A stretch of 61,259 bases of DNA, taken from the NCBI GenBank assembly GCA_047634075.1, contig JBLIDI010000001.1, positions 1 through 61,259 of the forward strand, given 5' to 3'. The position numbers and the translations under genes are program-made. This DNA comes from Akkermansiaceae bacterium. Lineage in GTDB: Bacteria; Verrucomicrobiota; Verrucomicrobiia; Verrucomicrobiales; Akkermansiaceae. Under the pieces are notes generated by a model. The model saw only the letters and a list, made by a program, of their open reading frames with translations. It was not told where the DNA came from and searched no databases. Positions within the stretch are counted from its first letter, which is position 1. Each line of letters starts with the position of its first letter. Below, piece after piece: positions 31,777 through 54,835 of the stretch.

Positions 31777-32011
31777 GTGAGATCACTTTGTTGATTGTGG
31801 TTTCCAAAGCGACGATGTCGGCTTGCTCGCTAATTCGAAGGTTCGGCGCTATCCGGTGCTTCAAGCTCCTTGGCGTAATGCAAATCAGCGTGTTGCGCCA
31901 TTTTACGGTTGACGAGGGGCCTGCCCAGCGATGTAACCTTAGGGAACGCGAACAGTTATTTCTTTCTTGGTTGACGAGAAAGGTGATTTTTTGCGGATAA
32001 ATAAAAATATT

Positions 32012-32845
32012 ATGAAAAATTCCGACCAAAGAAATTTCGCAAAAAAGCGAACCCGGAAGACCCTCGCTGCTGCGTTTACTCTTGCGCTTGCTGCTTCAGC
32101 AAATGCCGCAATCGTAGACGGTCTCGTCGAAAATTGGGCTTTCGACGACGACTACTCCGCAGAAGTGGACCCTAGCCATGCTGGCACCTTGGTGACCACT
32201 GGAACCGGAAGTGGCAGCTTCGTTGCTGGAAAGTTTGGTTCGGCAATCGATCTTGCAAATAGCACTGATAACCAAGCCTTTGTCACAATCGGAGGTGACG
32301 AAAACGATATGGATTTTACTGGAGGCAGCATGTCAATTTCCGCTTGGTATACGACTGAATCTCTTTACACCAATTGGCAAACCTTGGCTGGTAAAGGTGA
32401 AGGTAATGGCTGGCGAATTGCCAGGGCGAGTGCCTCGGGAACCGGATTGACGTTTTCGGGCAGGAGGCCGCATGACTTTGACGCCGAACTCGATCAACAA
32501 GACGGCTCTTGGCACCATTTGGTGGCTACGGTTGAATCTGGAGGTGACAACAACATGTATATTAATGGGGTTTTGATGGCAACAAACTCATCGGGGGTCC
32601 TCCTTGAAAACAGGGGGAACGCGATGCAGATCGGCGGCAACCCTGACGCAGGAAACAGGGGATGGAACGGGAACATTGATGATGTTGCCATCTGGAATCG
32701 CGCTCTGAGCCAATCTGAAGTCGACTCGATTTGGAATGGTGGAACCGGAGCCAGCATCGCAAGTCTCTCTGTCGTTCCCGAGCCTACTTCATTGGCCTTG
32801 TTGGGCTTCGGTGGCCTCGCGCTGATTTTCCGCAAACGACGTTAG
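32012..32845 (+). CDS. LamG/concanavalin-A-like lectin domain protein with PEP-CTERM anchor
   Basis: ORF trimmed to ATG 32012, with a signal peptide. The LamG-type pattern ..WHHLVATVESGG.NNMYINGVL...GNIDDVAIWNRALSQSEV is present. C-terminus is VPEPTSLALLGFGGLALIFRKRR. Confidence 0.8.
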   Translation: MKNSDQRNFAKKRTRKTLAAAFTLALAASANAAIVDGLVENWAFDDDYSAEVDPSHAGTLVTTGTGSGSFVAGKFGSAIDLANSTDNQAFVTIGGDENDMDFTGGSMSISAWYTTESLYTNWQTLAGKGEGNGWRIARASASGTGLTFSGRRPHDFDAELDQQDGSWHHLVATVESGGDNNMYINGVLMATNSSGVLLENRGNAMQIGGNPDAGNRGWNGNIDDVAIWNRALSQSEVDSIWNGGTGASIASLSVVPEPTSLALLGFGGLALIFRKRR

Positions 32846-33029: not shown

Positions 33030-34040
33030 ATGAAATTAAACGCCACCTTAACTTCTCTTTGTTCTGCCGCTGTTCTGCTCCTGAGCACTCCTCTGTTAAA
33101 TGCTGAACTCGTCGACGGTCTTGTCGAACACTGGTCCCTCGACGGGGACTACAGCGCCGCAGTGGACTCTTCCCACGATGGCACCCTAGTGACTACGGGA
33201 ACAGGCAGTGCCGCTTTCGTTGCTGGAAAGTTTGGGAGCGCAGTCGATTTTACCAACTCCACCGATAACCAAGCCATTGTTACAATCGGCGGTGACGAGA
33301 ACGATTTCGATTTCACGGCCAGCGACTTTACCATTTCGGCTTGGTACACCACCGAGTTCCTTTACACCAATTGGCAAACGATCATTGCCAAAGGTGAAGG
33401 AAACGGCTGGCGAATTGCCCGGGCGAGCGCTTCGGGAACTTCATTGACGTTTTCGGGCAGGAAGCCGCACGACTATCCCGCCAAACTCGATGAACAGGAC
33501 GGCTCTTGGCATCTTCTGGTCTCAACGGTTGAGACTGGCGTCGAGACCAACATGTATATTGATGGGGTCTTGGTGGCAACAGACACGACGGCGTATGTTC
33601 CCGAGAATAGGGGGAACCCGATGCAGATCAGCGGCAACCCTGATGCTGGAAACAGGGGATGGAACGGGAAAATTGATGATGTCGGGGCCTGGAATCGCGT
33701 TCTGACCCAGGAAGAGGTGAGTTTAATCTGGAATGACGGCGCTGGCGCGAGCATCGCAAGCCTGACCGGAGGTACGACCGATCCTTTTCAGATCGTTGAT
33801 ATCGCGCAAACTCGCACTGAGGATAATATCCTTGTCGACCTTACCTTTACTTCGAAAGAAGGGAGTTCTTACTCGGTCTTTGCCACCAAAGATCTCTCCC
33901 TCCCACTTGCAAGCTGGAACGAATTGAGTGATAGTTTTCTCGCTGCAGCCGAAGCCACCACGACCATCTTCCCTATCAATTTCAATGACCTAGGTCTCCC
34001 GCTGGACGATCAACAGTTCTTTGTGGTCGTGAAAAATTAA
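33030..34040 (+). CDS. LamG/concanavalin-A-like lectin domain protein, tandem paralog with a different C-terminal module
   Basis: Collinear and roughly three-quarters identical (by eye) to the previous gene over ~215 aa. It then carries a ~95-aa tail ending ..SWNELSD...QQFFVVVKN instead of PEP-CTERM. Confidence 0.8.
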   Translation: MKLNATLTSLCSAAVLLLSTPLLNAELVDGLVEHWSLDGDYSAAVDSSHDGTLVTTGTGSAAFVAGKFGSAVDFTNSTDNQAIVTIGGDENDFDFTASDFTISAWYTTEFLYTNWQTIIAKGEGNGWRIARASASGTSLTFSGRKPHDYPAKLDEQDGSWHLLVSTVETGVETNMYIDGVLVATDTTAYVPENRGNPMQISGNPDAGNRGWNGKIDDVGAWNRVLTQEEVSLIWNDGAGASIASLTGGTTDPFQIVDIAQTRTEDNILVDLTFTSKEGSSYSVFATKDLSLPLASWNELSDSFLAAAEATTTIFPINFNDLGLPLDDQQFFVVVKN

Positions 34041-42534: not shown

Positions 42535-43650
42535 TCAGGGTTTTGCGACACTCTCGTTAGAGTGCGGGCGATAGCTCAGGAGGCACCCGACTCCCGACAG
42601 TTCTTCGAGGACATCGCTGTCTTTTACCGTTTCGATAGGGACGTCATTTCGGATTGCGAGGCGGACCAATCGCTCACGCAGTTCGCTATCTGGCAGCTCC
42701 TTATTAATGATGAGCATATCGGCGTAACCCTGTGCAATGGCCTTTTGAGTTTCCTCTGAACCCGCAACGCCCAGCCCAGCGCTCAAGATCGCGGACTGCA
42801 ACTGGCTCACGCGGTCGTGACTCTCGATGTGCTCATATGCAGTGAAGACCTCCAGCGCCTCTACCACGATGGGATAGATTCCGTTGCTCGGATTCGCGAA
42901 CAAGGTGGTGATTAACTTATCCTTCAGCCGCGTCGGGAGCGACTTCGTGAGCCGGGCGACCATCTTGGGGCTACCCGCGATAACAAGGTGATTATGCCCG
43001 CGTCGCTGCATCAATTCGTCGAGGATTTCAATCTTCTGCTTCATGAAGCGATCGTTCTGCTCGTCGCGATACTTCTGGAATCGTTCGCGGGTCCACTCGC
43101 GTCCCAGGCGCTCGCGTAACTCAGGTCGCTCGGTGAAGATTTCCTGTGTGACCGCGCCCATCACCGTCTCGACGATGCGTGCCTCTTTCTCAGTGACAAT
43201 CACAATAGCAAAGCGATGGTAGGTATCCCTTGTTTCGATGACTGGGTAGATATGAGGGAGGGTATCGACGACGAGCTTGGTTTCTAAGACCACCTTGAAA
43301 TCCAAAGGAATGAGAAGGGGGCGCTTCCCCCATCGAGCATAGATGGCCGCTCCCCGGGAGCCTTTGGGGACTGAGTCGGTGAGGTATTTGCGGATTTCCC
43401 CGTAGGCATCTTGAAAATCGACCAAGCGCGAGCCTACGAAATGTCTCGCCATATCCTTCGCCTGTCGGTCGAAGAGCTGAAGGGTCGCTTGGAGGTTTTC
43501 TGTCAAATTGATAAAGCAGCTGATGAGGGGACTATCGCTAGGTGCGATATCGGAAAGGCGATTGAGAGCCTTTCTAAGGTCCTGGCTCGTAAGCCTTTTT
43601 TTAGAGGTCGTAATACTCGATGTTGGTAAGTTCGTTTGCTTCGTAGTCAT
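42535..43650 (-). CDS. eRF1/Pelota-like protein (bacterial aeRF1-type, baeRF1 family)
   Basis: About 370 aa. Central ..GAAIYARWGKRPLLIPLDFKV..LVVDTLPHIYPVIE..HRFAIVIVTEKEARI. is followed by a C-terminal ..GLGVAGSEETQKAIAQGYADMLIINKEL.. block, collinear with eRF1/Pelota domain 2-3 logic. ATG 43650 is preferred over 43674. Confidence 0.55.
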   Translation of the reverse strand: MTTKQTNLPTSSITTSKKRLTSQDLRKALNRLSDIAPSDSPLISCFINLTENLQATLQLFDRQAKDMARHFVGSRLVDFQDAYGEIRKYLTDSVPKGSRGAAIYARWGKRPLLIPLDFKVVLETKLVVDTLPHIYPVIETRDTYHRFAIVIVTEKEARIVETVMGAVTQEIFTERPELRERLGREWTRERFQKYRDEQNDRFMKQKIEILDELMQRRGHNHLVIAGSPKMVARLTKSLPTRLKDKLITTLFANPSNGIYPIVVEALEVFTAYEHIESHDRVSQLQSAILSAGLGVAGSEETQKAIAQGYADMLIINKELPDSELRERLVRLAIRNDVPIETVKDSDVLEELSGVGCLLSYRPHSNESVAKP

Positions 43651-43851
43651 ATCCCTACAAATAGGAACACGCATTTAAAACTACGCAACCTAAACCGTGA
43701 AAAATAAGTCAGGTAACAAAAGTCTATGATAGAAAACGATCGGAAACGGTTGAAGCTCAGTCTCTGCGTAGAGTCGCCCTTCCCCCCTCCTCTCAGGGGG
43801 CCCGACGGCTACTTCACGGACCTTCCGCGAGAAAGAAATTCCTAGCAGCTG

Positions 43852-44027: not shown

Positions 44028-44417
44028 GTGATTGGGACAAGTGCCGCAATGGCACAAGATCAAATGGTCAAACGAAGTGTCGTGATTGATGACTACTTTG
44101 CCCTGAAGAGCGTCGAGAGCCCGATCATAAGCCCAGACGGCAAATGGGTCGTCTATTGGATCAGCACCAAAGACCTCGAGAATGACCGCTCTGAATCACG
44201 CCTCTGGATGGTGCCCACCGAAGGGGGCGAGGCACGTCCCATCACCCCGAAAGCATCTAGGGTTGGGAGCCCCGGTTGGACGTCCGACAGTCAGTCCCTA
44301 CTCGTAGTTTATCCTAACGCGCACCATGGCATCAGAAAACACAGCTCTCAAAAAGACCTCCTGGAACGCTTCCTTGCCTGGTTTGAGAAATACGTCAAGA
44401 ACGCGAAACCCAACTGA
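44028..44417 (+). pseudogene. Collapsed S9 (prolyl oligopeptidase/DPP-IV-type) peptidase with an in-frame internal deletion
   Basis: A propeller start (..ISPDGKWVVYWIS...SRLWMVPTEGGEARPIT...SPGWTSDSQSLL) is joined directly to the extreme C-terminus (VVYPNAHHGI...LERFLAWFEKYVKN). 129 aa versus ~650 expected. The signal peptide is cut and has no upstream ATG. Confidence 0.6.
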
Positions 44418-44695: not shown

Positions 44696-47600
44696 TCACC
44701 TCGTCATGACACGAAGTCGCACAAACTGATGGAGTTCGGTCGAGAGTGTGAGTGGGTTCTGATAGCTCACTCGTGTTGTGCCATCACCTTGGTTGAGGCG
44801 TGATTGGAGGTCGGCAGAGCTGAGGGGAATCCAGTCGATGAGGTCGGTGGAGTATTCTGCGATCACGAGAGCATCGTCGCTGGCGAGATTTTGAAGAAAG
44901 CTGACCTGAAACGAGTCCCCGATAACGACTGGCGTGAGCGCGCTTTGGACGGCATACGATACGAGCTCTTCGGCGGTGCCGGTGAAGGACTGGCCGTCGT
45001 CGCTGCCGGGTGATCCTCCCAGAGTGGTGCTCGTGCGCCAAGCGAGAGCGGAATTGGGATCGGTGCCGGAGAAGACCAGACTGTATCCCGTGCCGTCGGA
45101 GCCCATTGGCCACGGGTTGTCGTCACCATAGGTGAAGTCGGCGATGGTGCTGGTGTCGGCGGCTTCAAAGCGGACATGCTCACCGCTGTTTCTGAGTTGG
45201 CCGAAAAACTGCCCTGCGATGGTGGCAAGGGCGGTTCCGTAGCGGAACTCGAAAGCTGCTTGATTCGCGACAATGAGCAAGCGGGCACCCGGAGCGAGGG
45301 TGAGGCCTTGCGGGAAGATGAAATCAATTCCGTCGGTGAAGCTTGCTCCGCTGAGATCGATGCCGATGGCTTCACTGGTGTTAAGGATCTCGATGAACTC
45401 GAAGGCGTCACTATCTGCGAAGCCTGCGGCAATCTCAACCGCGCTTGCTTCGATAGGATTGTAGTGGAGCTCGCGAATGATGGTATTGTCGGCGTTGGCG
45501 AGGGTGACACTCCCGGTGTTGGTCACCGTGATGGCGTCATTTCCGACTTCGAGACCCTGGTTGTTGTAGGCTTTCAGCGAGAGCAAATTTGGGCCAACCG
45601 AGATGGGGACGGAGATTTGCCACGAGTCGGCATCGGTCCAGGTGACGACCTGGGGAAGGCCGTTGACTGCGATACTGAAGACATCGATCCAGCCACTTCC
45701 GGTGAGATCAACGGCGGTGTCGGCTTCTGTGAAATTGTTTCCGCCGTTGGTGGTGATGAGGAAGGGGACCTCGGAAGGAAGGCTGTTCGCGATATGGTTA
45801 GCCCGCCCTGAAATGTATCCGGGGAGGTCAGTGAGACCGCCGCCGGTGAGGGTGCCGAAGTGAGAGGCCCACGAGGTCGTGTAAGTGCTGTTGAAGGTTG
45901 TTTCGATGAGGTCGTTCAGCTGGCCGTCAAAGAGGCGGCGGTATTGCGGGATGGCGAAAATTTTGGTGACTGAATTTCGACTCGGTGTCACTGATGAAGT
46001 GGTGCCTAATTGAAACGAGCGATCAAGATCCCATTGCAGGACGATGATTTTTTGGTCGGTGGGGCGGACGTAGTAGCGGAAGTTGTGTTCCCAAATTCGG
46101 CTGTAAATATCATCGGTGCCATTGAGGGACATCATCGCAAAGGTGCGCATCCATTGGTCGACATCAATGATCTCGTCGAGGGCGGTTTTGAGAGCGGTGC
46201 CACTGAGTGCCATCGCTTGATTGAGGGCGATGAGTGGGCGGTAATCATCGCGTCCACGTGCCGAGCGAATTTGGAATCCCCACCGGTAAGGTTCTTTGTC
46301 GAGGCCCCGGTCTTCGAGGTCGTAGCGGCCATTGGTGTGGTTGTAGGGATTTCCGATTTTCAGGCCTTCCGGTCCGCCGTCGGTGCCATTGGGATTGTAG
46401 AGAAGTTCTTGATTGAAAAGGGTGCCCGTCTCGTCGGCATCGGGGAAAAGTCCGTCGAAGAAGGTGCCGGTTTGGCGCGCCATCGAGAGGAGGCCGATGC
46501 CGCGGTCACCGGTGGTCGGAGTGATGATGTGGGCGACGTCATCATAAAAAGAGGCATAAGATCCGCCGGCCCGGTTCATGAGATGTTTGGCGAGGATCTC
46601 CTTGAGGTTCGGGCTGCGCTCGATGGAGATTGTTCCGTGAACTCCCCGAAAAAGTTGGTCGGGTTGGAAGCGGATATTGAAACCATAGTGACCGCTGTTG
46701 AAGCGGCCGAAGCCGCTGGCTTTGAGGCGAAGGCCGACATCGTAGTAAACCTTCTTCTCATCCTCGATGACGGTGACTGGGAAGCGGTCGTTGCTCAATC
46801 GGTTGGTTCTATCGAAGAGGAATGACTGGTCGCTGTTAGACATCACGATTCGGAAATTGTGCCGCACGCCCGAGTTATCGGCGAGGCCGTCTTGGATTTT
46901 ATAGAAAGCGCCGCCTTCGGGGCCGCCAGCGGGATAGAAGGTGGTGGCATTGGCGTTGTCGGTGGCCTGCACATAGAAGCGGACGATGCGGTTGGCTGAC
47001 TGTCCGGGGATGGTGCCGAGGTGGCGGATACCATCCGGTCCGGCGGCCATCGGGGAGCTCTGGAACGCACCGCCGTTGCTGGAATAATAGAGAGTGAGGT
47101 CACTGATGCCGTCCGGATCGGCGGCGTCGATAGCGACGTTTACGGACTGGTTTGCGTCGGGCACAACCGGGGCGTGGGCCAAGCCCTTCAAAGTCGGGCC
47201 CGAGTTTCCGAGTGCGTTTGAATTGAGCGTCCCAGGCGTTCCCCAAATCTCAGAAGTTGGAAGGGTGGTGGTGCGCTGCAGGTAGTTAAAATAAAGGCGT
47301 GTGTTGACCTGGTTGCTACCGCTGAGGAATTTTGCGCGGAAGCTGATGCGGTAAGTCGCGCCTGCGGTGACCCGCTCGCTGTTGTCGAAAGTGGTCTCAA
47401 GTTTGTTATGCTTGTCCCCGGTTGGGCCGGTGGCGACGATATGCAGACACTGGTTTCCGGGGGAGTCAGGGTCAGTGACGACGACGGTCCTGCCGTGCGA
47501 CCCGTGTGTGCCGAGGGCGCGCCACTTGTCAGCCCTGGAGCCCGGCGTGTCGCTTTCAAAATCGCCGTTCTGGATCATTTCGGTGCTGCCGTTTTCGATG

Positions 47601-50600
47601 ACGCTGACGTCGTCGAGGAGGAACTCGCCTGAGTCGAGCAGGGCGATAAGGAATTCGTGGTAGACATTGTTGCCGATGCCGTCGCTTACCGCGACGTCCT
47701 CGTAGGTGTAACTGTTCCAACCGCTGCGCGCGGACTCGGTGCTCGGGGCCCAGGCCGTGGCGGGGTAATTGTCCGCGTTCGGATCGCGCAGTTCCAGACT
47801 GGACCCGCCGCCGTCGGCTTTGCCATGCCACTTACCACCATCGAAATAGGTGATCTCATCCGCTGGGTTGCCGCGACCGTCCTCGAGGACGAGGTGGTCG
47901 CCGCCGTTACCCAAGCTTCCCGCATAATCACCGACGATGGTGATGCCCGGATACTTTTGCGAGAGAGCAGTGGCGTCTTTGGCGACAACGAGGTAGTCGC
48001 CTGAACCGAGCATCGTAGCGACAGGGAAGTTGTAGCGAATTCCGCCGTTGATCTCCCAAGTGCTGAGATCGATAGTGGAAGCTCCGCGGTTGTAGAGTTC
48101 GAGCCATTCTTCGTCGCGCTCGGCATAGGGCGAGGCTGGTGTGCCAGGGGTCTCGAACTTTCGCAAACTGGTGCGCAGGCCGAGGACGAGATCGCTGCTG
48201 CCGGTGCTGGATTGGTGAATTTCAACCGAGAGAAGGTTGCTGCCTTGGAGGATGTTTGGGTTACTAAAGGAGAGTGTCCCAAGGGTTGCGTTGGTGACCG
48301 TGGTGCCGGGTGTAATGGGAGTGAAGGGTCCTGGGGCCATGTTGTAGCGGCCGATCTCGGCGCCGTTTAGATAGAAAATGGCGCCGTCGTCGATGTAGTG
48401 CTCGAAGGTAATTTGATCGACGTCTGCTGGGTCGTTGTAGCTGAACTCAGTTTCGAAGTAGTAAGGGATTTTTGATTCACGGGTGACGGCTGTTAGGATG
48501 GCTTCGTCAAGTGTCCCGGTTTCAAATCCGAGCAGGCCGGGACCCTGTGACCAACTGAGGTCATCGACTGTGTGGGCGCGGCCTTCCCATCCGGAGGGCA
48601 AACCGCCAGTGCCGGCGTCGAGGTTGTAGCGCCAGACATGGTTGAAATCCATGACTTGAACGTGAGCGTAAGTCGGCGGCGTGCCGGAGGTCGAGCGCAC
48701 CGGATAGGCGTGGTAAAAAATCTCGTTGACGACAATGGCATCCTCGAAGGTGAAGGCGTTGGCGCTGCCGAATGTGGCTGTGTCAGGATTGAGCCAGCGT
48801 CCTGTGCCGTCAGGACTGCGGCCTTTTAGTTGATCGTCGACTCGAGCCGAATCGATGAGAGCTGCCTTTCCTGCGGTGAAGAGAAACAAGCGATCGTTGT
48901 CTGCGGGGGTGAAGCCAAGTGCGGTGGCGTCGATCGTGTTAAATGTTCTGGGGGCGAGGATGCTGGCCGGAAAAGTGGAGTCACTATGGTGAGAATTGGA
49001 GGAGGTGATGACCATGCCGCCGAGTGCGATCGGCAGGGTGCTGTGGTTGTGGAACTCAAGCTGGAAGGTCGGCGCAGTCGAGGCGGCGACTTCATTAAAG
49101 GCGATCGCTGGGAGGAGTGCCTGGATGTTGGTCCCGCCGGGCGTGCCGTTAGCGGCGGTACTGTGCGTCCAGTTTTGCGGATGGGCGCTCCCTGTCGCGG
49201 GGTCGATTTTTGCCAGCGTCGATCCCGAACCATCGGGACCCAGCGGCCACGGAGAGGTGTCGCCGTATGAGATCTCATCCATGATGCGGCGACGGTCGAG
49301 CGAATCGGAGCTCGCGCCGTTCGGACTTGCGCCAGCGATGGTGCGGAAAGCGCGATTGTTGTTAAACAGGCGTAGAGTCTCTCCGGAGTTTGAAAGGGTC
49401 CCGGCAAAGGGTCCGAGCGCGCCGGGGTAATTGGTAGGATTTTTGGCGATGATCAGGTAGCTGCGGGCGTCGATCACGGTGCCCTCCGGGAAATCAAAAG
49501 CGACACCGTCGATGCGCCAGTTGCTCAGGTCGACATCGACGGCGAGCTGGTTGTAAAGTTCGATATACTCAAGCGCATCGTTATCGTCCGCGGGGTGGTA
49601 GTGGATCTCGTTGAAGACAACGACACTGTCACGGGTCGTGTTGGTAGAACCGGACACTGGCCGTCCGACGGTTACCACCGGGAAACTCGCGTTGTCGTTG
49701 GGGTTGGTTCCTCCTGTGATTTCATCGCCATCGCTGAAGCCGTCGCTGTCGCTATCATTGTCGAGCGGGTCCGTGCTGTAAGTGTCGATTTCCTGGCCGT
49801 CGGTTAGGTCGTCATCGTCGGAGTCAGAGTGGTCAGGGATGGTTTGCTCAGTCCACTCGTCGACATCGTTGAGGCTGTCAGAGTCAAAGTCTCCGCTGCC
49901 ATCGCGGCTCAAATTCCCAAAGTAGAAGGTCTCCCAGTTGTCGCCCATGCCGTCGTTGTCGCTGTCGGTTGGATCAGTGATATCGACGGCTGAGTCGAAT
50001 GCGATGCCGGTCAGAGATCGGTTCTGGCCCAAGCTGACGATGTCGATGGTGATATTTGAGGTGCCTGTTGAAACGTCGAAGACGTGGTAGGCGACGCCGT
50101 TGTTCGGGTGATCGTAGGTGGTGGATTGGGAACCGCTGCCATCATCGACCGTGACGATGTATTCGGTGCCTTGATTGTCGCCTGAGGCGGTGATCACGGT
50201 GAGTCGGAAGGCGTCAAAGTTCGCGCGGGTGACGGTGAAGCGCCTCGTTCCACTGGAGTTGGCGAGGACCGGGGCGCTGGTGATAACATTTCCCGCCGTG
50301 GGGTCTTCCAATGTCCCGAAGTTGCCATTGCCCGACCACATCCCGATGTTGGTGTCGATACTGGTCACTCCTACGCCAGCGGGAAGGTTGTAGGCGTTGT
50401 TAGGGTTTGCGGACGAGATGTCGTAGGGTTGTGTGTAGACGCTGTCCGCCGCCGCCAGCCCATAAATGAGATAGCCGCTCGTGCCGTACTCTTGGTCTGC
50501 GTCGAGATTGGCAGCGGTGCGCCAGTTCGCACCAGCGGTCGAGTCAACCCCCACGATGGTGACAGATGCGCTGAGGCTCATCGCGGTAGCGAGGAGTGGG

Positions 50601-50638
50601 AGCGCTGCAAAGGCGCCTTGGCGTAAGAGAGTCATCAT
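44696..50638 (-). CDS. Giant secreted protein: shared N-terminal module + TSP3-like Ca-binding repeats + lamin-tail domains + CBM-like region + CotH kinase-like domain + C-terminal beta-sandwich-like tail
   Basis: 1980 aa with a signal peptide. DxDxDG-type repeats (DSDNDGMGDNWE, DSDDDDLTDGQE, DNDSDSDGFSDGDE). LTD hallmarks (VVFNEIHYHP..YIELYN, EWLELYNRGASTIDLSTW, IRELHYNP..FEFIEILN). CotH-like block ..YDVGLRLKASGFGRFNSGHYGFNIRF...HNFRYYVRPTDQKIIVLQWDLDRSF (approx nt 45990-46870). Confidence 0.85.
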   Translation of the reverse strand: MMTLLRQGAFAALPLLATAMSLSASVTIVGVDSTAGANWRTAANLDADQEYGTSGYLIYGLAAADSVYTQPYDISSANPNNAYNLPAGVGVTSIDTNIGMWSGNGNFGTLEDPTAGNVITSAPVLANSSGTRRFTVTRANFDAFRLTVITASGDNQGTEYIVTVDDGSGSQSTTYDHPNNGVAYHVFDVSTGTSNITIDIVSLGQNRSLTGIAFDSAVDITDPTDSDNDGMGDNWETFYFGNLSRDGSGDFDSDSLNDVDEWTEQTIPDHSDSDDDDLTDGQEIDTYSTDPLDNDSDSDGFSDGDEITGGTNPNDNASFPVVTVGRPVSGSTNTTRDSVVVFNEIHYHPADDNDALEYIELYNQLAVDVDLSNWRIDGVAFDFPEGTVIDARSYLIIAKNPTNYPGALGPFAGTLSNSGETLRLFNNNRAFRTIAGASPNGASSDSLDRRRIMDEISYGDTSPWPLGPDGSGSTLAKIDPATGSAHPQNWTHSTAANGTPGGTNIQALLPAIAFNEVAASTAPTFQLEFHNHSTLPIALGGMVITSSNSHHSDSTFPASILAPRTFNTIDATALGFTPADNDRLFLFTAGKAALIDSARVDDQLKGRSPDGTGRWLNPDTATFGSANAFTFEDAIVVNEIFYHAYPVRSTSGTPPTYAHVQVMDFNHVWRYNLDAGTGGLPSGWEGRAHTVDDLSWSQGPGLLGFETGTLDEAILTAVTRESKIPYYFETEFSYNDPADVDQITFEHYIDDGAIFYLNGAEIGRYNMAPGPFTPITPGTTVTNATLGTLSFSNPNILQGSNLLSVEIHQSSTGSSDLVLGLRTSLRKFETPGTPASPYAERDEEWLELYNRGASTIDLSTWEINGGIRYNFPVATMLGSGDYLVVAKDATALSQKYPGITIVGDYAGSLGNGGDHLVLEDGRGNPADEITYFDGGKWHGKADGGGSSLELRDPNADNYPATAWAPSTESARSGWNSYTYEDVAVSDGIGNNVYHEFLIALLDSGEFLLDDVSVIENGSTEMIQNGDFESDTPGSRADKWRALGTHGSHGRTVVVTDPDSPGNQCLHIVATGPTGDKHNKLETTFDNSERVTAGATYRISFRAKFLSGSNQVNTRLYFNYLQRTTTLPTSEIWGTPGTLNSNALGNSGPTLKGLAHAPVVPDANQSVNVAIDAADPDGISDLTLYYSSNGGAFQSSPMAAGPDGIRHLGTIPGQSANRIVRFYVQATDNANATTFYPAGGPEGGAFYKIQDGLADNSGVRHNFRIVMSNSDQSFLFDRTNRLSNDRFPVTVIEDEKKVYYDVGLRLKASGFGRFNSGHYGFNIRFQPDQLFRGVHGTISIERSPNLKEILAKHLMNRAGGSYASFYDDVAHIITPTTGDRGIGLLSMARQTGTFFDGLFPDADETGTLFNQELLYNPNGTDGGPEGLKIGNPYNHTNGRYDLEDRGLDKEPYRWGFQIRSARGRDDYRPLIALNQAMALSGTALKTALDEIIDVDQWMRTFAMMSLNGTDDIYSRIWEHNFRYYVRPTDQKIIVLQWDLDRSFQLGTTSSVTPSRNSVTKIFAIPQYRRLFDGQLNDLIETTFNSTYTTSWASHFGTLTGGGLTDLPGYISGRANHIANSLPSEVPFLITTNGGNNFTEADTAVDLTGSGWIDVFSIAVNGLPQVVTWTDADSWQISVPISVGPNLLSLKAYNNQGLEVGNDAITVTNTGSVTLANADNTIIRELHYNPIEASAVEIAAGFADSDAFEFIEILNTSEAIGIDLSGASFTDGIDFIFPQGLTLAPGARLLIVANQAAFEFRYGTALATIAGQFFGQLRNSGEHVRFEAADTSTIADFTYGDDNPWPMGSDGTGYSLVFSGTDPNSALAWRTSTTLGGSPGSDDGQSFTGTAEELVSYAVQSALTPVVIGDSFQVSFLQNLASDDALVIAEYSTDLIDWIPLSSADLQSRLNQGDGTTRVSYQNPLTLSTELHQFVRLRVMTR

Positions 50639-50714
50639 CTAAGGGGTGGGTCGGTCAGGGCCTGCTTACTGGGATTAGTAAAGCGCATCTCGGATCAATT
50701 TGCGATGAGTGAGA

Positions 50715-52847
50715 CTACTCTTCGCGAACGCGATAGTGCTTCTTCGTCTCAATTGCCGCTGGTCTGTCGACAATCACCGTGGTGGCTGTCGCGGGCGAGG
50801 CAGCGGCATCTATTTCTGTGAGCAAGTCGATCCAGGTTTCCAGATCGAGGGAGGCTTCTACCGTGTAACTTTTCCCAGGAATGGTCGTCCAGGTGAGCTC
50901 GATGGCATCATCTTCGGTGTGGCGAATGTCACTTACTCTGAGTCCGCCCTGCGAGGCGCTGACGTGGAGGAATTGGAAACCACTCCAGTTTGCCTCATTC
51001 GATACGCCGGGGTCGATCGACCCGATGATTTTTCCGTCGCTACCAGCTATCCCGGTGAATTCGAAGCCTGCGGTGCCGACGTTGGTCGGCGTTTCGTCGT
51101 TGAGGTCGCCGTCGCCATTGGTGTCGACCGTCAGCAGCATGTCGCGGGCGACGCTACCATAGGCGAAAAAGGTAAAATTGGACTGCGGGGCAACACCGGA
51201 GATTTCCCACGCCGCGCTCGCCTCTGCATTGCCCGCGTTGACAAACAGGTAGTCGTTGGCAAGAGGGTCGTTTTGAGAGGCATTAGTCCAGCTTGAGACA
51301 GTGCCGGTGAGCGAGAAGGTGACTCCGCTGTCATTGCCGTTCGCATCGACCAGGTCGAAGCTCGGATCGAGAGCCACGTTCGGGTGTCCAGGCAGGGTAA
51401 GGGCATTCCACACGCCCGTCATGATCCCAGCACGAGGTTCGAAGCCACTCATCATCAGAACGGGATCGATGGCGAAGGCTGCTCCTTCTGGGTTGCCTTG
51501 GAGATCAACGCTGATGAGCCCGGCGGGGACGGGCGGAATGCTCGCGCTATTTGTCGGATCCGAACCGTTAGATATCTCTGCGTTGTCGGCGGTTCCGTCG
51601 CCATCGGTGTCCGCGTTATTCGGATCAGTGATGTAGCCGTTGGCGCTGTCGATCTCGGCAAAGTCAGCAATGCTATCGCCATCGGAGTCTGGATTATTAG
51701 GGGAGGTGGGGTCGCCGGGGGCTACTCCAAGGATCCCTCCGTTGTAAGGGTTAAGGTTACCACCGACTTCGTCGCCGTCTTCAATGGTGTCATCGTCTGA
51801 GTCCGGGTCGAGGGCATCGGTCGAGTTCGCAAGCTCGGCCGCATTGTCGAGTCCATCGCTGTCAGGATCTTCGCTGGAGTCATCTACGAGAGGGTCGAAA
51901 CCAGAGGCGAAATTATCAACCTCGAATTGATCATTGTAGCCGTCGTCGTCAGTATCGCGGTCCGTGGGGCTGGTCGAATGGGTATTGACTTCCTCGCCAT
52001 CATTGAGGCCATCGGAATCGCTGTCAGCAACCTTTGGATGGGTCAGGTTTTGCCACTCTTCCAAGTTGCTGAGCCCATCCGTCTCTTCGTCAGTAGCAGG
52101 ATCGACGATCCCGACGCCTCCAAAGTAGAACTCCTCCCAGTTGTCGCCGATCCCATTGGCGTTCAGGTCACTCGGGTCGGTGAGATCAACGGTATCGGTG
52201 TCGAAAGCGATTCCCATGAGGCTCCGGTTTTCGGGGGTGCTGGTGATGTTGATTAAGATGTCGCTGTTGCCGTCGGAAACAGCGAAGACGTGGTAGGCCA
52301 GGCCGTTCGTGACATGGGCGTAGTTCGAACTCGCGGAACCGGAGCCGTCATCGAGTGCTACGGTGTATTCCGTGCTCTGGTTGTCCCCGGAAGCCATCAT
52401 GATCGTGATCTGGAACGGCTCGCTGGCAGCGCGCGTGACCGTGAACTGCCTGGTTCCGGTTGAGTTGGCAAGGACGGGGGCATTCGTGATTGCGTTGCCG
52501 TTTCCGGGATCCTCGATCTCGCCAAAGTTGGCGTTGTTGCCGGACCACATGCCAATGTTGGTGTCTACCGTCGAAACGGAAACTCCGGCGGGTAGATTGT
52601 AGGCGTTAAGAAGATTGGTATCGCTGATATCGAAATCTCCGTTGTAGACGGCATCAGCTTCGTTGAGTCCGAAAACCACGTAACCTGCGGTGCCATACTC
52701 GTTGTCAGCCTCAAGGTTGGCAGCGCTACGCCAGTTCGGGCCGGTAGTGGCGTCCACGCCGATCGCGGTGACAGTCGCGCCTGCGGTCGAGGCCCCGAGG
52801 AGGAGGGCCGAAACGGTGATGAGTTTGGTAAGATGAGGCATTTTCAT
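50715..52847 (-). CDS. Secreted protein: shared N-terminal module + long TSP3-like Ca-binding repeat region + unassigned domain + C-terminal beta-sandwich-like tail
   Basis: ORF trimmed to ATG 52845-52847 (MKMPHLTKLITVSALLLGAS). Many DxDxDG repeats (DSDSDGLNDGEE, DTDDDGYNDQFE, DPDSDGLDNAAE, DSDGDSIADFAE, DTDGDGTADNAE). The tail is ..LTWTTIPGKSYTVEASLDLETWIDL...HYRVREE. Confidence 0.8.
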   Translation of the reverse strand: MKMPHLTKLITVSALLLGASTAGATVTAIGVDATTGPNWRSAANLEADNEYGTAGYVVFGLNEADAVYNGDFDISDTNLLNAYNLPAGVSVSTVDTNIGMWSGNNANFGEIEDPGNGNAITNAPVLANSTGTRQFTVTRAASEPFQITIMMASGDNQSTEYTVALDDGSGSASSNYAHVTNGLAYHVFAVSDGNSDILINITSTPENRSLMGIAFDTDTVDLTDPSDLNANGIGDNWEEFYFGGVGIVDPATDEETDGLSNLEEWQNLTHPKVADSDSDGLNDGEEVNTHSTSPTDRDTDDDGYNDQFEVDNFASGFDPLVDDSSEDPDSDGLDNAAELANSTDALDPDSDDDTIEDGDEVGGNLNPYNGGILGVAPGDPTSPNNPDSDGDSIADFAEIDSANGYITDPNNADTDGDGTADNAEISNGSDPTNSASIPPVPAGLISVDLQGNPEGAAFAIDPVLMMSGFEPRAGIMTGVWNALTLPGHPNVALDPSFDLVDANGNDSGVTFSLTGTVSSWTNASQNDPLANDYLFVNAGNAEASAAWEISGVAPQSNFTFFAYGSVARDMLLTVDTNGDGDLNDETPTNVGTAGFEFTGIAGSDGKIIGSIDPGVSNEANWSGFQFLHVSASQGGLRVSDIRHTEDDAIELTWTTIPGKSYTVEASLDLETWIDLLTEIDAAASPATATTVIVDRPAAIETKKHYRVREE

Positions 52848-53048
52848 TGGGCTTGTTGGAGTTGCGGTTGAGGGAAGGATTTCTAGATTAAAGGAAAGCT
52901 CAGGGGAGACTCGAAATGGTTGGAATCGCGAAACCCCACGGAATGAGATTGGAGAGAGACATAAGGAGGTGGAAGATCGGGGCAATAAGCCCCCACGGAT
53001 CTGATTTTCCGGTGACCGCGAGTGGAGCAGGTTCAGCTACCGCGAAAC

Positions 53049-53789
53049 TTACCGGCGGCGGCGCAGAGCAATGCCGGTCATCCCGAGGCCGAGCAAAAGA
53101 GTGGAAGATAGTTCGGGGACAGGGAGGACATCGAACCCAATTCCAGTTAATGAACGGTTCTCGGCAGTGGACGCAATATCGATCACGATGTCGCTCGTGC
53201 CCGCAGAGATGTCGAAGACATGGAATGCGAGGCCATTCGCCGCGTGGTCGTAGTTCGACATCATGGACCCAGAGCCATCGTTGACAGTGAGGGTGAACTC
53301 CGTGCCCTGGTTGTCACCGGAGGCGGTCAGCAGGGTGAGCCGGTAGCCGGTGCTCAGCGCTCGTGAAACCGTAAATTGTCTCGTTCCGGTCGAGTTCGCA
53401 AGAACTGGCGCGCTGGTGATCGCGTTGCTGTTGCCTGGGTCCTCGATCGTTCCGAAGTTCCCGTTTCCAGACCACATGCCAATGTTGATGTCGACGGTCG
53501 AAACGGAAATTCCGGAGGGAAGGTTGTAGAGGTTCAACGGGTTGGTGTTGCCGACGTCGTAGTTGCCATCGTAAATAGAATCGTCTTGGTTGAGCCCGAA
53601 GACGACATACCCGGCAGTGCCATACTCGTTGTCGGACTCAAGGTTTGCAGCAGTCCGCCAGTTCGCCCCGGCGGTGGAATCAACACCGACGAAGGAGACT
53701 GCTGCGCTGGCACTTACGGCTAGGCTTAGAGTGAGCGCGAGTCCTGTGAGGTTTGTCTTGTTTTTCATAATCATAGGCTTGTTTTGCAA
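53049..53789 (-). CDS. PEP-CTERM protein consisting of the shared N-terminal module only
   Basis: Signal peptide, a ~190-aa module collinear with the two downstream genes, then VLPVPELSSTLLLGLGMTGIALRRRR (PEP-CTERM-type). Confidence 0.8.
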   Translation of the reverse strand: MQNKPMIMKNKTNLTGLALTLSLAVSASAAVSFVGVDSTAGANWRTAANLESDNEYGTAGYVVFGLNQDDSIYDGNYDVGNTNPLNLYNLPSGISVSTVDINIGMWSGNGNFGTIEDPGNSNAITSAPVLANSTGTRQFTVSRALSTGYRLTLLTASGDNQGTEFTLTVNDGSGSMMSNYDHAANGLAFHVFDISAGTSDIVIDIASTAENRSLTGIGFDVLPVPELSSTLLLGLGMTGIALRRRR

Positions 53790-53950: not shown

Positions 53951-54835
53951 ATGAAAGAAGGGAAGGGCCGTCGCAGATTTAGAAATATCGTCGTGGGTCT
54001 GTTGCTGGGATGCGGTTTTTCAATCAGTGGATGTTCGCATTCGGGAGAGCGAAATCTCGCAACCCTTCGCAAGAAGGTCATGGTTCCGGGTCGTCATGCC
54101 GAGGGGATTTGTTTTTTAAGAATGAAGCGGAAGTTCGCGGTGATTCTGGGGCGGGATTCTTCGGCCACCGGTGCTCTGATCGATGGACGTTATGTCCTGA
54201 CTGCGGCGCATAGCCTCTACGATCCGCCCTCGCAGAAAGGGAGTCTGCGAAGCATCCAGCTGGCCGTTGGGAGGGCGGATGTTTCCAAGGTGAATGATGA
54301 AACCGCCGACAGTCTTGTGCGGCGGGAGCGCGGGGATGTTGGGCGCTTGCCGCAGGACCAGGTCTGGAGTGTTTCTCCGGACTATCTGGCTCGGCTGACT
54401 CATCGGTCTCTCAAAAAATCGAGCGTTCCGTTGGTGCGGTGTGACTATGGTTTTGTCGATTTGGGGAAGGATTTCGGGAGGGGGAATTCCTTCCAGCTTT
54501 CGCGGGCGGTGGGGCATTTGAAAGTGGGGGATGTGATCAGCGTAGCGGGATATCCGGGTGAATCGAAGCGGATCAAAGGCGCGACCGGAGCGAGGCTTTT
54601 CGTGGGAGCGGGGAAAGTCACCACGATTCAGGGAAGCGTTTTCGGGTATGACCTCGAAACCTCAAAGGGCGTGAGTGGAGGTCCGGTTTGGATGGAGCGA
54701 GGCGGTCGGCGTTCCCTGGTGGGAATTCACCTCGGGTCGGACATCGGGGGAATGAAGGGCGCGGTGGGTCGGGTCATCGATGCAGCGCTTTTGAATGATT
54801 GGGATGCCTGGGTGGGGCTGAGAAAGCGACGATGA
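53951..54835 (+). CDS. Trypsin-like (V8/glutamyl-endopeptidase-like) serine protease, lipoprotein-type signal
   Basis: LLLGCGFSISGC signal/lipobox region. His motif LTAAHSL and Ser motif GVSGGPVW. Confidence 0.75.
   Translation: MKEGKGRRRFRNIVVGLLLGCGFSISGCSHSGERNLATLRKKVMVPGRHAEGICFLRMKRKFAVILGRDSSATGALIDGRYVLTAAHSLYDPPSQKGSLRSIQLAVGRADVSKVNDETADSLVRRERGDVGRLPQDQVWSVSPDYLARLTHRSLKKSSVPLVRCDYGFVDLGKDFGRGNSFQLSRAVGHLKVGDVISVAGYPGESKRIKGATGARLFVGAGKVTTIQGSVFGYDLETSKGVSGGPVWMERGGRRSLVGIHLGSDIGGMKGAVGRVIDAALLNDWDAWVGLRKRR

Follow-up and report, generated by a model that had tools for sequence, protein, structure and literature searches.

Three consecutive genes, here called A, B and C, in a 61,259-nucleotide (nt) stretch of the genome of an Akkermansiaceae bacterium (GenBank assembly GCA_047634075.1, contig JBLIDI010000001.1; the whole stretch is referred to as the window) share an N-terminal module of about 193 amino acids (aa). 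Sequence comparison identifies this module as a previously unnamed domain family of an ordinary kind, which is almost confined to the Planctomycetes-Verrucomicrobia-Chlamydiae (PVC) group, is modelled as a beta jelly roll and was anciently triplicated at this locus. With somewhat better than even confidence we propose that it is an autonomous secreted lectin-like head, and that one ligand, probably a glycan, is engaged by the anchored product of gene C as well as by the two large proteins A and B.

Three consecutive genes share an N-terminal module

In the open reading frame (ORF) list of the window, A, B and C are three consecutive collinear ORFs on the minus strand, arranged head to tail. 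Gene A (44696..50638) encodes a protein of 1980 aa composed of a signal peptide, the module, a TSP3-like linker, three LTD stretches, a CBM_4_9-like region, a CotH domain and a C-terminal domain. Gene B (50715..52847) encodes 710 aa counted from an ATG (MKMPHL), comprising a signal peptide, the module, Asp-rich TSP3-like repeats, a second domain and the same kind of C-terminal domain; 710 aa is also the length in the database record for the window's own gene, and the mechanical ORF list takes a TTG further upstream (52985) as the start, which gives 756 aa. Gene C (53049..53789) consists of a signal peptide, the module and a PEP-CTERM-like tail and is 246 aa long if started at a TTG and 241 aa if started at the ATG of position 53774. 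The 241-aa form corresponds to the database record for the window's contig, and orthologues of 239-250 aa carry PF07589. The signal peptides of all three proteins are N-terminal hydrophobic leaders judged by eye.

Module borders were set with a hidden Markov model (HMM) of the family. The copy in A covers residues 24-216 (nt 49991-50569, minus strand; independent expectation value (E) 3e-89), the copy in B residues 25-217 (nt 52197-52775, minus strand; 7e-87) and the copy in C residues 29-222 (nt 53124-53705, minus strand; 4e-94). A preliminary description of the window had reported a collinear module after each signal peptide; the ORFs lie where it placed them, and the module bounds deviate from its ranges by a few bases. 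Its estimate of two-thirds identity holds for pairs of copies (64-68%; B shares 68% with C and 64% with A), and the motifs that it quoted are found in the sequences. All three copies are identical at 103 of 195 columns (53%). BLASTP aligned A with B at 57% identity over 296 aa (E 3e-99), A with C at 62% over 215 aa (E 1e-86) and B with C at 64% over 216 aa (E 2e-93). Judged from these protein alignments, the three-way similarity is far beyond chance.

In an alignment of 60 modules, 52 of 194 positions were at least 85% conserved. These positions are rich in W, Y, F, H, R, N and D, and most of them fall into loops, namely NWRT, EYGT.GY, MWSGNGNFG, ASGD, DG, YHV.D and AFD. The A, B and C head types are set apart by 11 conservative positions only, suggesting that the three heads have kept one common functional surface.

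Searches for a described family

Neither Pfam-A 2025 nor NCBIfam 20.0 gave a match over the module in A, B or C. The same scans yielded no module match in 26 family members (E up to 10) nor in 10 distant members; no Pfam model of a carbohydrate-binding module (CBM) matched the module, and LamG_3 (PF13385) gave no match over it in the 26 members. Single-sequence and profile searches of the PDB sequences returned noise only and no CBM. Literature searches brought up no description of the module, and the database names of its members are 'hypothetical protein' or are taken from a LamG back end. These scans bear out the earlier statement that the module is unassigned.

The closest NCBIfam entries are NF038129, NF038120 ('QFxxD'), PepA (NF033554) and XDP1 (NF041927). 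Like C, these are proteins of about 240 aa with a signal peptide, a beta-rich domain and a PEP-CTERM tail, and they are presumed exosortase substrates. They are the best NCBIfam matches for C, yet they remain far below their cut-offs and derive from the tail. NF038129 and the other NCBIfam PEP-CTERM families were rejected as the identity of the module: C reached 25.7 versus 65 bits with a tail-driven score, and the tail-less heads of A and B gave no match. Distant members of the family also match NCBIfam PEP-CTERM families in their last ~25-60 residues only.

Predicted fold of the module

The preliminary description had suggested structure prediction followed by a fold search. AlphaFold2, run on the copy of C with a 26-sequence alignment, produced a confident all-beta model with a predicted local distance difference test score (pLDDT) of 86 and a predicted template modelling (TM) score (pTM) of 0.86. 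It is made up of 15 beta strands, and no helix in it reaches four residues. Comparison with the PDB by Foldseek gave loose matches to jelly-roll CBMs, with query-based TM scores (TMq) of 0.30-0.48, a best target-based score (TMt) of 0.58 and E values of 1e-4 to 6e-4. The top matches were TmCBM61 (2xon), a pectate-lyase CBM (8wc1; TMq 0.48, TMt 0.58) and CBM6/35-bearing enzymes. Further PDB matches were glycoside hydrolases with jelly-roll accessory domains, receptor-binding domains of Cry and iota toxins and TNF-family ligands. A viral structure library gave generic jelly-roll matches of tail-fibre, C1q-like and CenC/CBM6-like type with TM scores below 0.45. The model clearly places the fold among the beta jelly rolls of CBM or lectin type; a specific family name cannot be given.

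Jelly-roll CBMs (CBM61 2xon, 8wc1 and the CBM6/CBM35/CBM4_9 type) resemble the module as all-beta sandwiches and as its best Foldseek matches. They are likewise appended to larger extracellular proteins, sometimes in tandem, and display conserved aromatic and polar loop residues. In contrast to them, the module, which the Pfam and PDB sequence searches did not relate to them, is about 45 residues longer, contains a long conserved N-terminal loop, does not exceed a TMq of 0.48 and is not attached to a carbohydrate-active enzyme in the window.

The triplication is old and the family is almost confined to the PVC group

The module-coding DNA of the paralogues is 64-70% identical. At fourfold-degenerate sites of identical residues, third positions agree in 35-44% only, so that synonymous sites are near saturation, which indicates that the paralogues are old and under purifying selection. 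In a neighbour-joining tree, the A-, B- and C-type heads form separate orthologous clades across genomes. The exceptions are the loci L005 (9800-10639/10793-12958) and L007 (9899-10639/10793-12961), in which the B-type head clusters with the C-type head of its own genome, suggesting gene conversion between neighbouring paralogues. Gene order, read from matches of the module HMM on six-frame ORFs of the loci, follows the same scheme elsewhere: a small PEP-CTERM gene, a ~720-aa gene and a ~1980-2010-aa gene succeed each other in L001, L002, L005, L006 and L007 and in part in L004, L008 and L012. Since at least eight other Verrucomicrobiales/Akkermansiaceae genomes share the C-B-A order, the triplication is old as judged by comparative sequence data.

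The preliminary description had itself raised the possibility that the similarity merely reflects a recent duplication, within this genome, of an already described CBM. The three genes are indeed adjacent and on the same strand, and the grouping of B- and C-type heads in L005 and L007 shows that gene conversion occurs occasionally. Recent origin is contradicted by the divergence of the module-coding DNA with its nearly saturated fourfold-degenerate sites, by the clades of A, B and C orthologues, which span at least eight genomes, and by the lack of any described CBM or other family matching the 26 members or the profile. We consider this explanation refuted, with next to no probability remaining.

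A scan of 185,579 species genomes revealed 38 module loci, nearly all of them from the PVC group. Most belong to metagenome-assembled genomes of aquatic Akkermansiaceae/Verrucomicrobiales; Chthoniobacterales, Phycisphaerae/Sedimentisphaerales, Victivallales and one Sumerlaeota are represented as well. An exhaustive profile search against 1.84 billion cluster representatives gave 497 matches at E≤1e-3, 143 at ≤1e-10 and 50 at ≤1e-30, the 497 being clusters at 50% identity that are almost all of PVC origin.

The module is mobile and is exchanged on a common cargo

The position of the module is mostly N-terminal. Two tandem copies are present in L030 and P0087 and four in P0064; the module is internal in P0110, P0115, P0116 and P0133, and in P0107 it follows an M60-like peptidase on the C-terminal side. 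Peptidases of this type are in general equipped with glycan-binding modules. The tandem, internal and C-terminal copies point to a mobility that is usual for accessory binding modules. In 44 long relatives the most frequent partner domains were LamG_3 (25) and Ig-like domains (16), followed by PATR, PA14, GLEYA and F5/8-C.

These arrangements also bear on the idea of a small catalytic module, such as a polysaccharide lyase or a hydrolase-like protein, whose conserved R, H, Y and D residues would act in catalysis. Nearly invariant residues suited to such a role exist (R17, Y28, Y33, W78, N83, D131, D143, Y161, H162 and D192), and jelly-roll lyases of similar size are known. Against it, no enzyme family was matched in Pfam, NCBIfam or the PDB sequences. 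The glycoside hydrolases among the top 50 fold matches align over part of long multi-domain chains, and no lyase catalytic domain was found among these matches. Furthermore, occurrence in tandem and fusion to a peptidase typically mark an accessory module. A catalytic function is thus most improbable in our judgement.

Exchange of heads was found on the giant proteins. Residues 335-1842 of A are collinear with CotH/LTD giants of L039, L010 and L011 that lack the module. In the giants of L039 a LamG_3 N-terminus takes the place of the module, and in those of L010 and L011 the N-terminal part differs and contains no module. A small C-type PEP-CTERM gene is located upstream of the giant in all three loci, directly so in L010 and L011 and separated from it by a module-bearing 952-aa gene in L039. 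The tandem and internal copies, the varied partner domains and this head swap agree with the earlier characterization of the module as tandemly expanded and domain-shuffled. The LamG_3/concanavalin-A-like heads (PF13385) of PVC surface proteins therefore occupy the same architectural slot as the module on homologous giants, and in the window they too occur in a PEP-CTERM version and in a version with the C-terminal domain. However, the Pfam LamG_3 model matched the module in no member, and the top fold matches include no concanavalin-A-like structure. The back end of A is a typical member of the CotH kinase/LTD giants (PF08757 and PF00932) and collinear with its module-less relatives; the likeness concerns the cargo, whereas the N-terminal head made up of module and TSP3 is specific to the clade of the window.

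A task of the module in biogenesis or structure instead of ligand binding, in outer-membrane translocation, in nucleation of folding or as an inert spacer at the mature N-terminus, would agree with a first beta strand that starts 1-2 residues past the predicted signal-peptide cleavage site in most members. The N-terminal module is also common to proteins ranging from 240 to 5887 aa. Internal, C-terminal and tandem copies do not conform to such a cap, and homologous CotH/LTD giants do without it. Moreover, the strong conservation of aromatic and polar residues in exposed loops is unusual for a spacer. We regard a function in export or capping as highly improbable.

A further explanation is that the heads oligomerize with themselves or with each other in the manner of TNF or C1q, so that the anchored C recruits the anchor-less A and B to the cell surface and the cassette encodes one complex. 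Three paralogous heads encoded side by side in an order conserved in at least eight genomes would suit such a complex, C consists of a head and an anchor with no other domain, and A and B lack PEP-CTERM. In addition, 4-1BBL, FasL, CD40L and C1q-like viral proteins were among the weak fold matches. Adjacent paralogous jelly-roll heads are likewise a feature of C1q/TNF-like heteromeric proteins, an analogy that concerns this explanation only. In contrast to those proteins, A, B and C have no collagen or coiled-coil stalk and hardly any paralogue-specific positions in the module, and the TM scores amount to 0.27-0.34 (0.27-0.31 for TNF-like folds). The 11 type-specific positions are conservative and give no sign of complementary interfaces. 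C-type genes are paired with module-less CotH/LTD giants in L010, L011 and L039, solitary C-type genes exist in L042-L044, and a 1387-aa protein of L035 combines module and PEP-CTERM in one chain. Tandem arrays and internal positions, moreover, fit the avidity of binding modules better than an oligomerization domain. Tethering through head-to-head contacts appears unlikely.

A proposed lectin-like binding head

The mobility of the module, its lectin- and adhesin-type partners, the exchange of heads on the same cargo and the single conserved surface shared by the three copies argue for a lectin-like binding head. From homology, the age of the triplication, the fold class, domain mobility and gene linkage, we predict a binding activity, a ligand class, exosortase processing and a surface location as follows. 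A, B and C would be exported by means of a Sec-type signal peptide, and the module would fold at the new N-terminus. C consists of the head and a PEP-CTERM-type tail only, and its processing by an exosortase would leave the cell with one surface-fixed copy of the head. In B the same head would be presented on a Ca-binding TSP3-like spacer ahead of a second lectin-like domain, and in A on a Ca-binding TSP3-like spacer ahead of the LTD/CBM/CotH-kinase-like giant; both proteins end in another C-terminal domain and lack PEP-CTERM. The cell surface, through C, and the two large extracellular proteins A and B would then engage one and the same ligand, and this shared ligand would bring the CotH-type giant A and protein B to the place where the cell-bound head binds. 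The ligand could be the cell's own envelope or exopolysaccharide (EPS), or an environmental polysaccharide. PEP-CTERM/exosortase, the sorting system of Haft et al. 2006 (PMC1569441), is associated with EPS.

The tail of C (nt 53052..53123, minus strand) consists of VPELSS, a hydrophobic stretch and RRRR. It scored 15.3 versus 20.7 bits with Pfam PEP-CTERM (PF07589) and 14.7 versus 16 with TIGR02595, the helix and the RRRR being present. In this motif, which is otherwise invariantly PEP, C reads PEL owing to a single-base change, CTA for CCA, within 53103-53120. Two proteins that are 97% identical to C, P0001 and P0212, have PEP, with VPEPSS as the sequence read in one protein of this identity, and the PEL variant was also found in one other assembly (P0213). 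C orthologues with PEP pass the PEP-CTERM cut-off, and Pfam recognizes the tails of most small family members.

Several observations weigh against the binding-head interpretation. The module resembles CBMs only loosely (TM 0.3-0.58, sequence identity below 20%), and jelly rolls also serve in TNF/C1q-type oligomers, in toxins and in enzymes. The conserved residues were placed in loops through the secondary-structure string of the model alone. In none of the three proteins did Pfam recognize a glycoside hydrolase, lyase or esterase; with no CAZy-type catalytic domain attached in the window, the module falls outside the strict CAZy definition of a CBM. The PEL motif of C may impair exosortase processing and anchoring, or may be a strain polymorphism. 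Finally, the preliminary description had proposed to look for co-occurrence with an exosortase, and none was found encoded in the 61-kb window; among the proteins there, only an EamA transporter has numerous membrane spans. Besides C, a canonical PEP-CTERM protein is encoded at 31967-32845, which suggests that an exosortase system is in use.

Back ends of A and B

According to the preliminary description, the shared module is fused to three different back ends. They do differ as described, except that A and B have the first TSP3-like stretch and the last domain in common. In A, the module is followed by a TSP3-like Asp-rich linker (residues 217-334, nt 49637..49990, minus strand; TSP3_bac 19.2 bits, cut-off 25), whose first part is homologous to that of B, as the BLASTP alignment of A and B extends to about residue 307. 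The first of three LTD stretches covers residues 338-428 (nt 49355..49627, minus strand), and the three together reach 145.7 bits versus a cut-off of 34.3 (PF00932; E 8e-43). BLAST comparison with the giants of L039 and L010 uncovered internal repeats at about residues 335-496, 841-967 and 1720-1881. The best-matching stretch of the CotH kinase-like domain lies at residues 1471-1590 (nt 45869..46228, minus strand; PF08757 26.5 versus 23.8 bits), and a CBM_4_9 match is marginal (24.2 bits, cut-off 25.9). The back end of A thus passes the cut-offs of both PF08757 and PF00932 and qualifies as a CotH/LTD protein.

The Asp-rich TSP3-like repeats of B extend over residues 218-435 (nt 51543..52196, minus strand). 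Their sub-threshold match to TSP3_bac (PF18884; 16.6 bits, cut-off 25) is the only Pfam match in B, and NCBIfam gave a sub-threshold match to CglD at residues 269-428. The repeats contain eight DxDxD motifs, five of which fit the stricter DxDxDG-type pattern; a sixth match to this pattern is located at residue 575 in the second domain. The linker of A has five DxDxD motifs, and the stricter sites number two in A and six in B.

The second all-beta domain of B, which is unassigned like the module, comprises about 200 aa (residues 436-635, nt 50943..51542, minus strand) and has homologues in P0217 and P0219-P0221. In these proteins, which end in PEP-CTERM, it occurs singly or in tandem. Its consensus is SVD.QG…NVWNA…DYLFVNAGN…VD..GDG.L.D…EANWSGFQL. 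A model of the back end of B was of low confidence (pLDDT 67) and gave generic CBM-like fold matches only. Homology of this domain to the module was considered and dismissed: an hhalign match was an artefact caused by the end of a module left in the aligned P0216 sequence, and trimmed alignments gave a probability below 1%. Neither A nor B has a PEP-CTERM tail.

A strictly C-terminal domain alternates with PEP-CTERM

A and B end in the same kind of all-beta domain of about 75 aa. It occupies residues 1906-1980 of A (nt 44699..44923, minus strand; HMM independent E 5e-13) and residues 636-710 of B (nt 50718..50942, minus strand; 2e-24), in both cases one residue before the stop codon. A third copy was located at ~33786-34037 on the plus strand in a LamG_3 paralogue. 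Its consensus is …SY.VE.S.DL..W…[FY].R[VL], and it ends 0-3 residues before the stop. The domain stands at the extreme C-terminus of 28 ORFs, three in the window and 25 in L001-L025, and closes A, B, the LamG_3 paralogue and most relatives without PEP-CTERM. It had no match in Pfam, NCBIfam or the PDB, and a homology search with its profile returned eight short fragments only, which were uninformative. From its placement the domain behaves like an unrecognized sorting or anchoring domain that alternates with PEP-CTERM.

A second pair of proteins in the window displays the same head with alternative tails. The protein encoded at 31967-32845 (plus strand) consists of LamG_3 and a canonical PEP-CTERM tail (VPEPTS…RKRR), and that at 33030-34040 (plus strand) of LamG_3 and the ~75-aa C-terminal domain. 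The two LamG_3 heads are 70% identical over 241 aa. Together with the module genes, this pair indicates that heads in this genome come in a PEP-CTERM and a C-terminal-domain version, and the recurring pairing hints at a second sorting route.

Other endings were seen outside the Verrucomicrobiota. Planctomycetota module proteins of ~590-700 aa (L022, L026, L030, L036) end in a dockerin-like Cys tail (…D.N.DC.V.L.D…WL.CG…). The tails of these Phycisphaerae/Sedimentisphaerales proteins are neither PEP-CTERM nor the verrucomicrobial C-terminal domain, and Pfam found Dockerin_1 in one family member.

Genes surrounding the cluster

Apart from A, B and C themselves, no gene of the window between 36 and 60.5 kb has a homologue in the 38 related loci; all matches were off-frame ORFs inside A and B. 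As the flanks are without counterparts in related loci, the three genes appear to move as a unit. A divergent trypsin-like peptidase (53951-54835) was rejected as a part of this unit since it has no counterpart in the related loci. A scan for promoters and terminators gave the same counts as in shuffled sequence and says nothing about operon structure.

An orthologous AraC-family regulator (38-84% identity) adjoins module clusters in seven loci of divergent lineages: L001 (8571-9476), L005 (18994-19902), L007 (19073-19975), L008 (8446-9324), L013 (8767-9813), L029 (4332-5273) and L039 (3937-4779). Regulators of the AraC family are typically controlled by sugars and other small molecules, and their presence beside seven clusters fits substrate-induced expression. 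No AraC homologue was found in the window. The place of the regulator in L005, L007 and L008 is taken in the window by an S9 peptidase remnant of 129 aa, suggesting from the gene arrangement a local rearrangement or deletion at this junction. The remnant ORF (44028-44417, plus strand) joins a PD40 repeat to the last ~40 residues of Peptidase_S9 and is what is left of a prolyl-oligopeptidase gene. Beyond it, downstream of A, lies a gene for a baeRF family 10 release-factor-like protein (42535-43674, minus strand; E 1e-19), which is not conserved near other clusters.

The preliminary description had further suggested that the module may define an undescribed cell-surface system and that the gene neighbourhood be surveyed. 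The window contains no machinery genes, the flanking genes are not conserved between genomes, and the only companions travelling with the module are other large secreted proteins and, at seven loci other than the window, AraC, so that this suggestion finds little support. In its strongest form it would amount to a PVC-specific surface apparatus under AraC control with one exosortase-fixed head and with giants, including a secreted CotH-type kinase, sorted by the ~75-aa C-terminal domain, the heads gathering all components on one ligand or on each other. Such an apparatus seems distinctly unlikely. If it existed, head and C-terminal domain would be new functional signals of PVC cell-surface biogenesis.

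By its gene content the window looks like part of an aquatic Verrucomicrobiales genome. It also encodes PSD/PSCyt and DUF1552 proteins, sulfatases, a SASA esterase and a 3-keto-disaccharide hydrolase, along with the housekeeping genes for PNPase, SelB, polyphosphate kinase and Ppx.

Implications for PVC surface proteins

PVC bacteria such as Verrucomicrobiota and Planctomycetota rank among the major degraders of complex polysaccharides from the sea and from fresh water, and they encode many giant secreted proteins with unannotated ends. The module family leaves current understanding intact and closes an ordinary gap of the domain-of-unknown-function kind. For annotators it provides a new domain model, and the domain is spread over PEP-CTERM anchors, adhesin-like LamG/Ig proteins, CotH/LTD giants and an M60-like peptidase. 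As a compact, conserved and confidently folding head, the module is a small and tractable construct that may lead to the ligand of a class of 'hypothetical' surface proteins.

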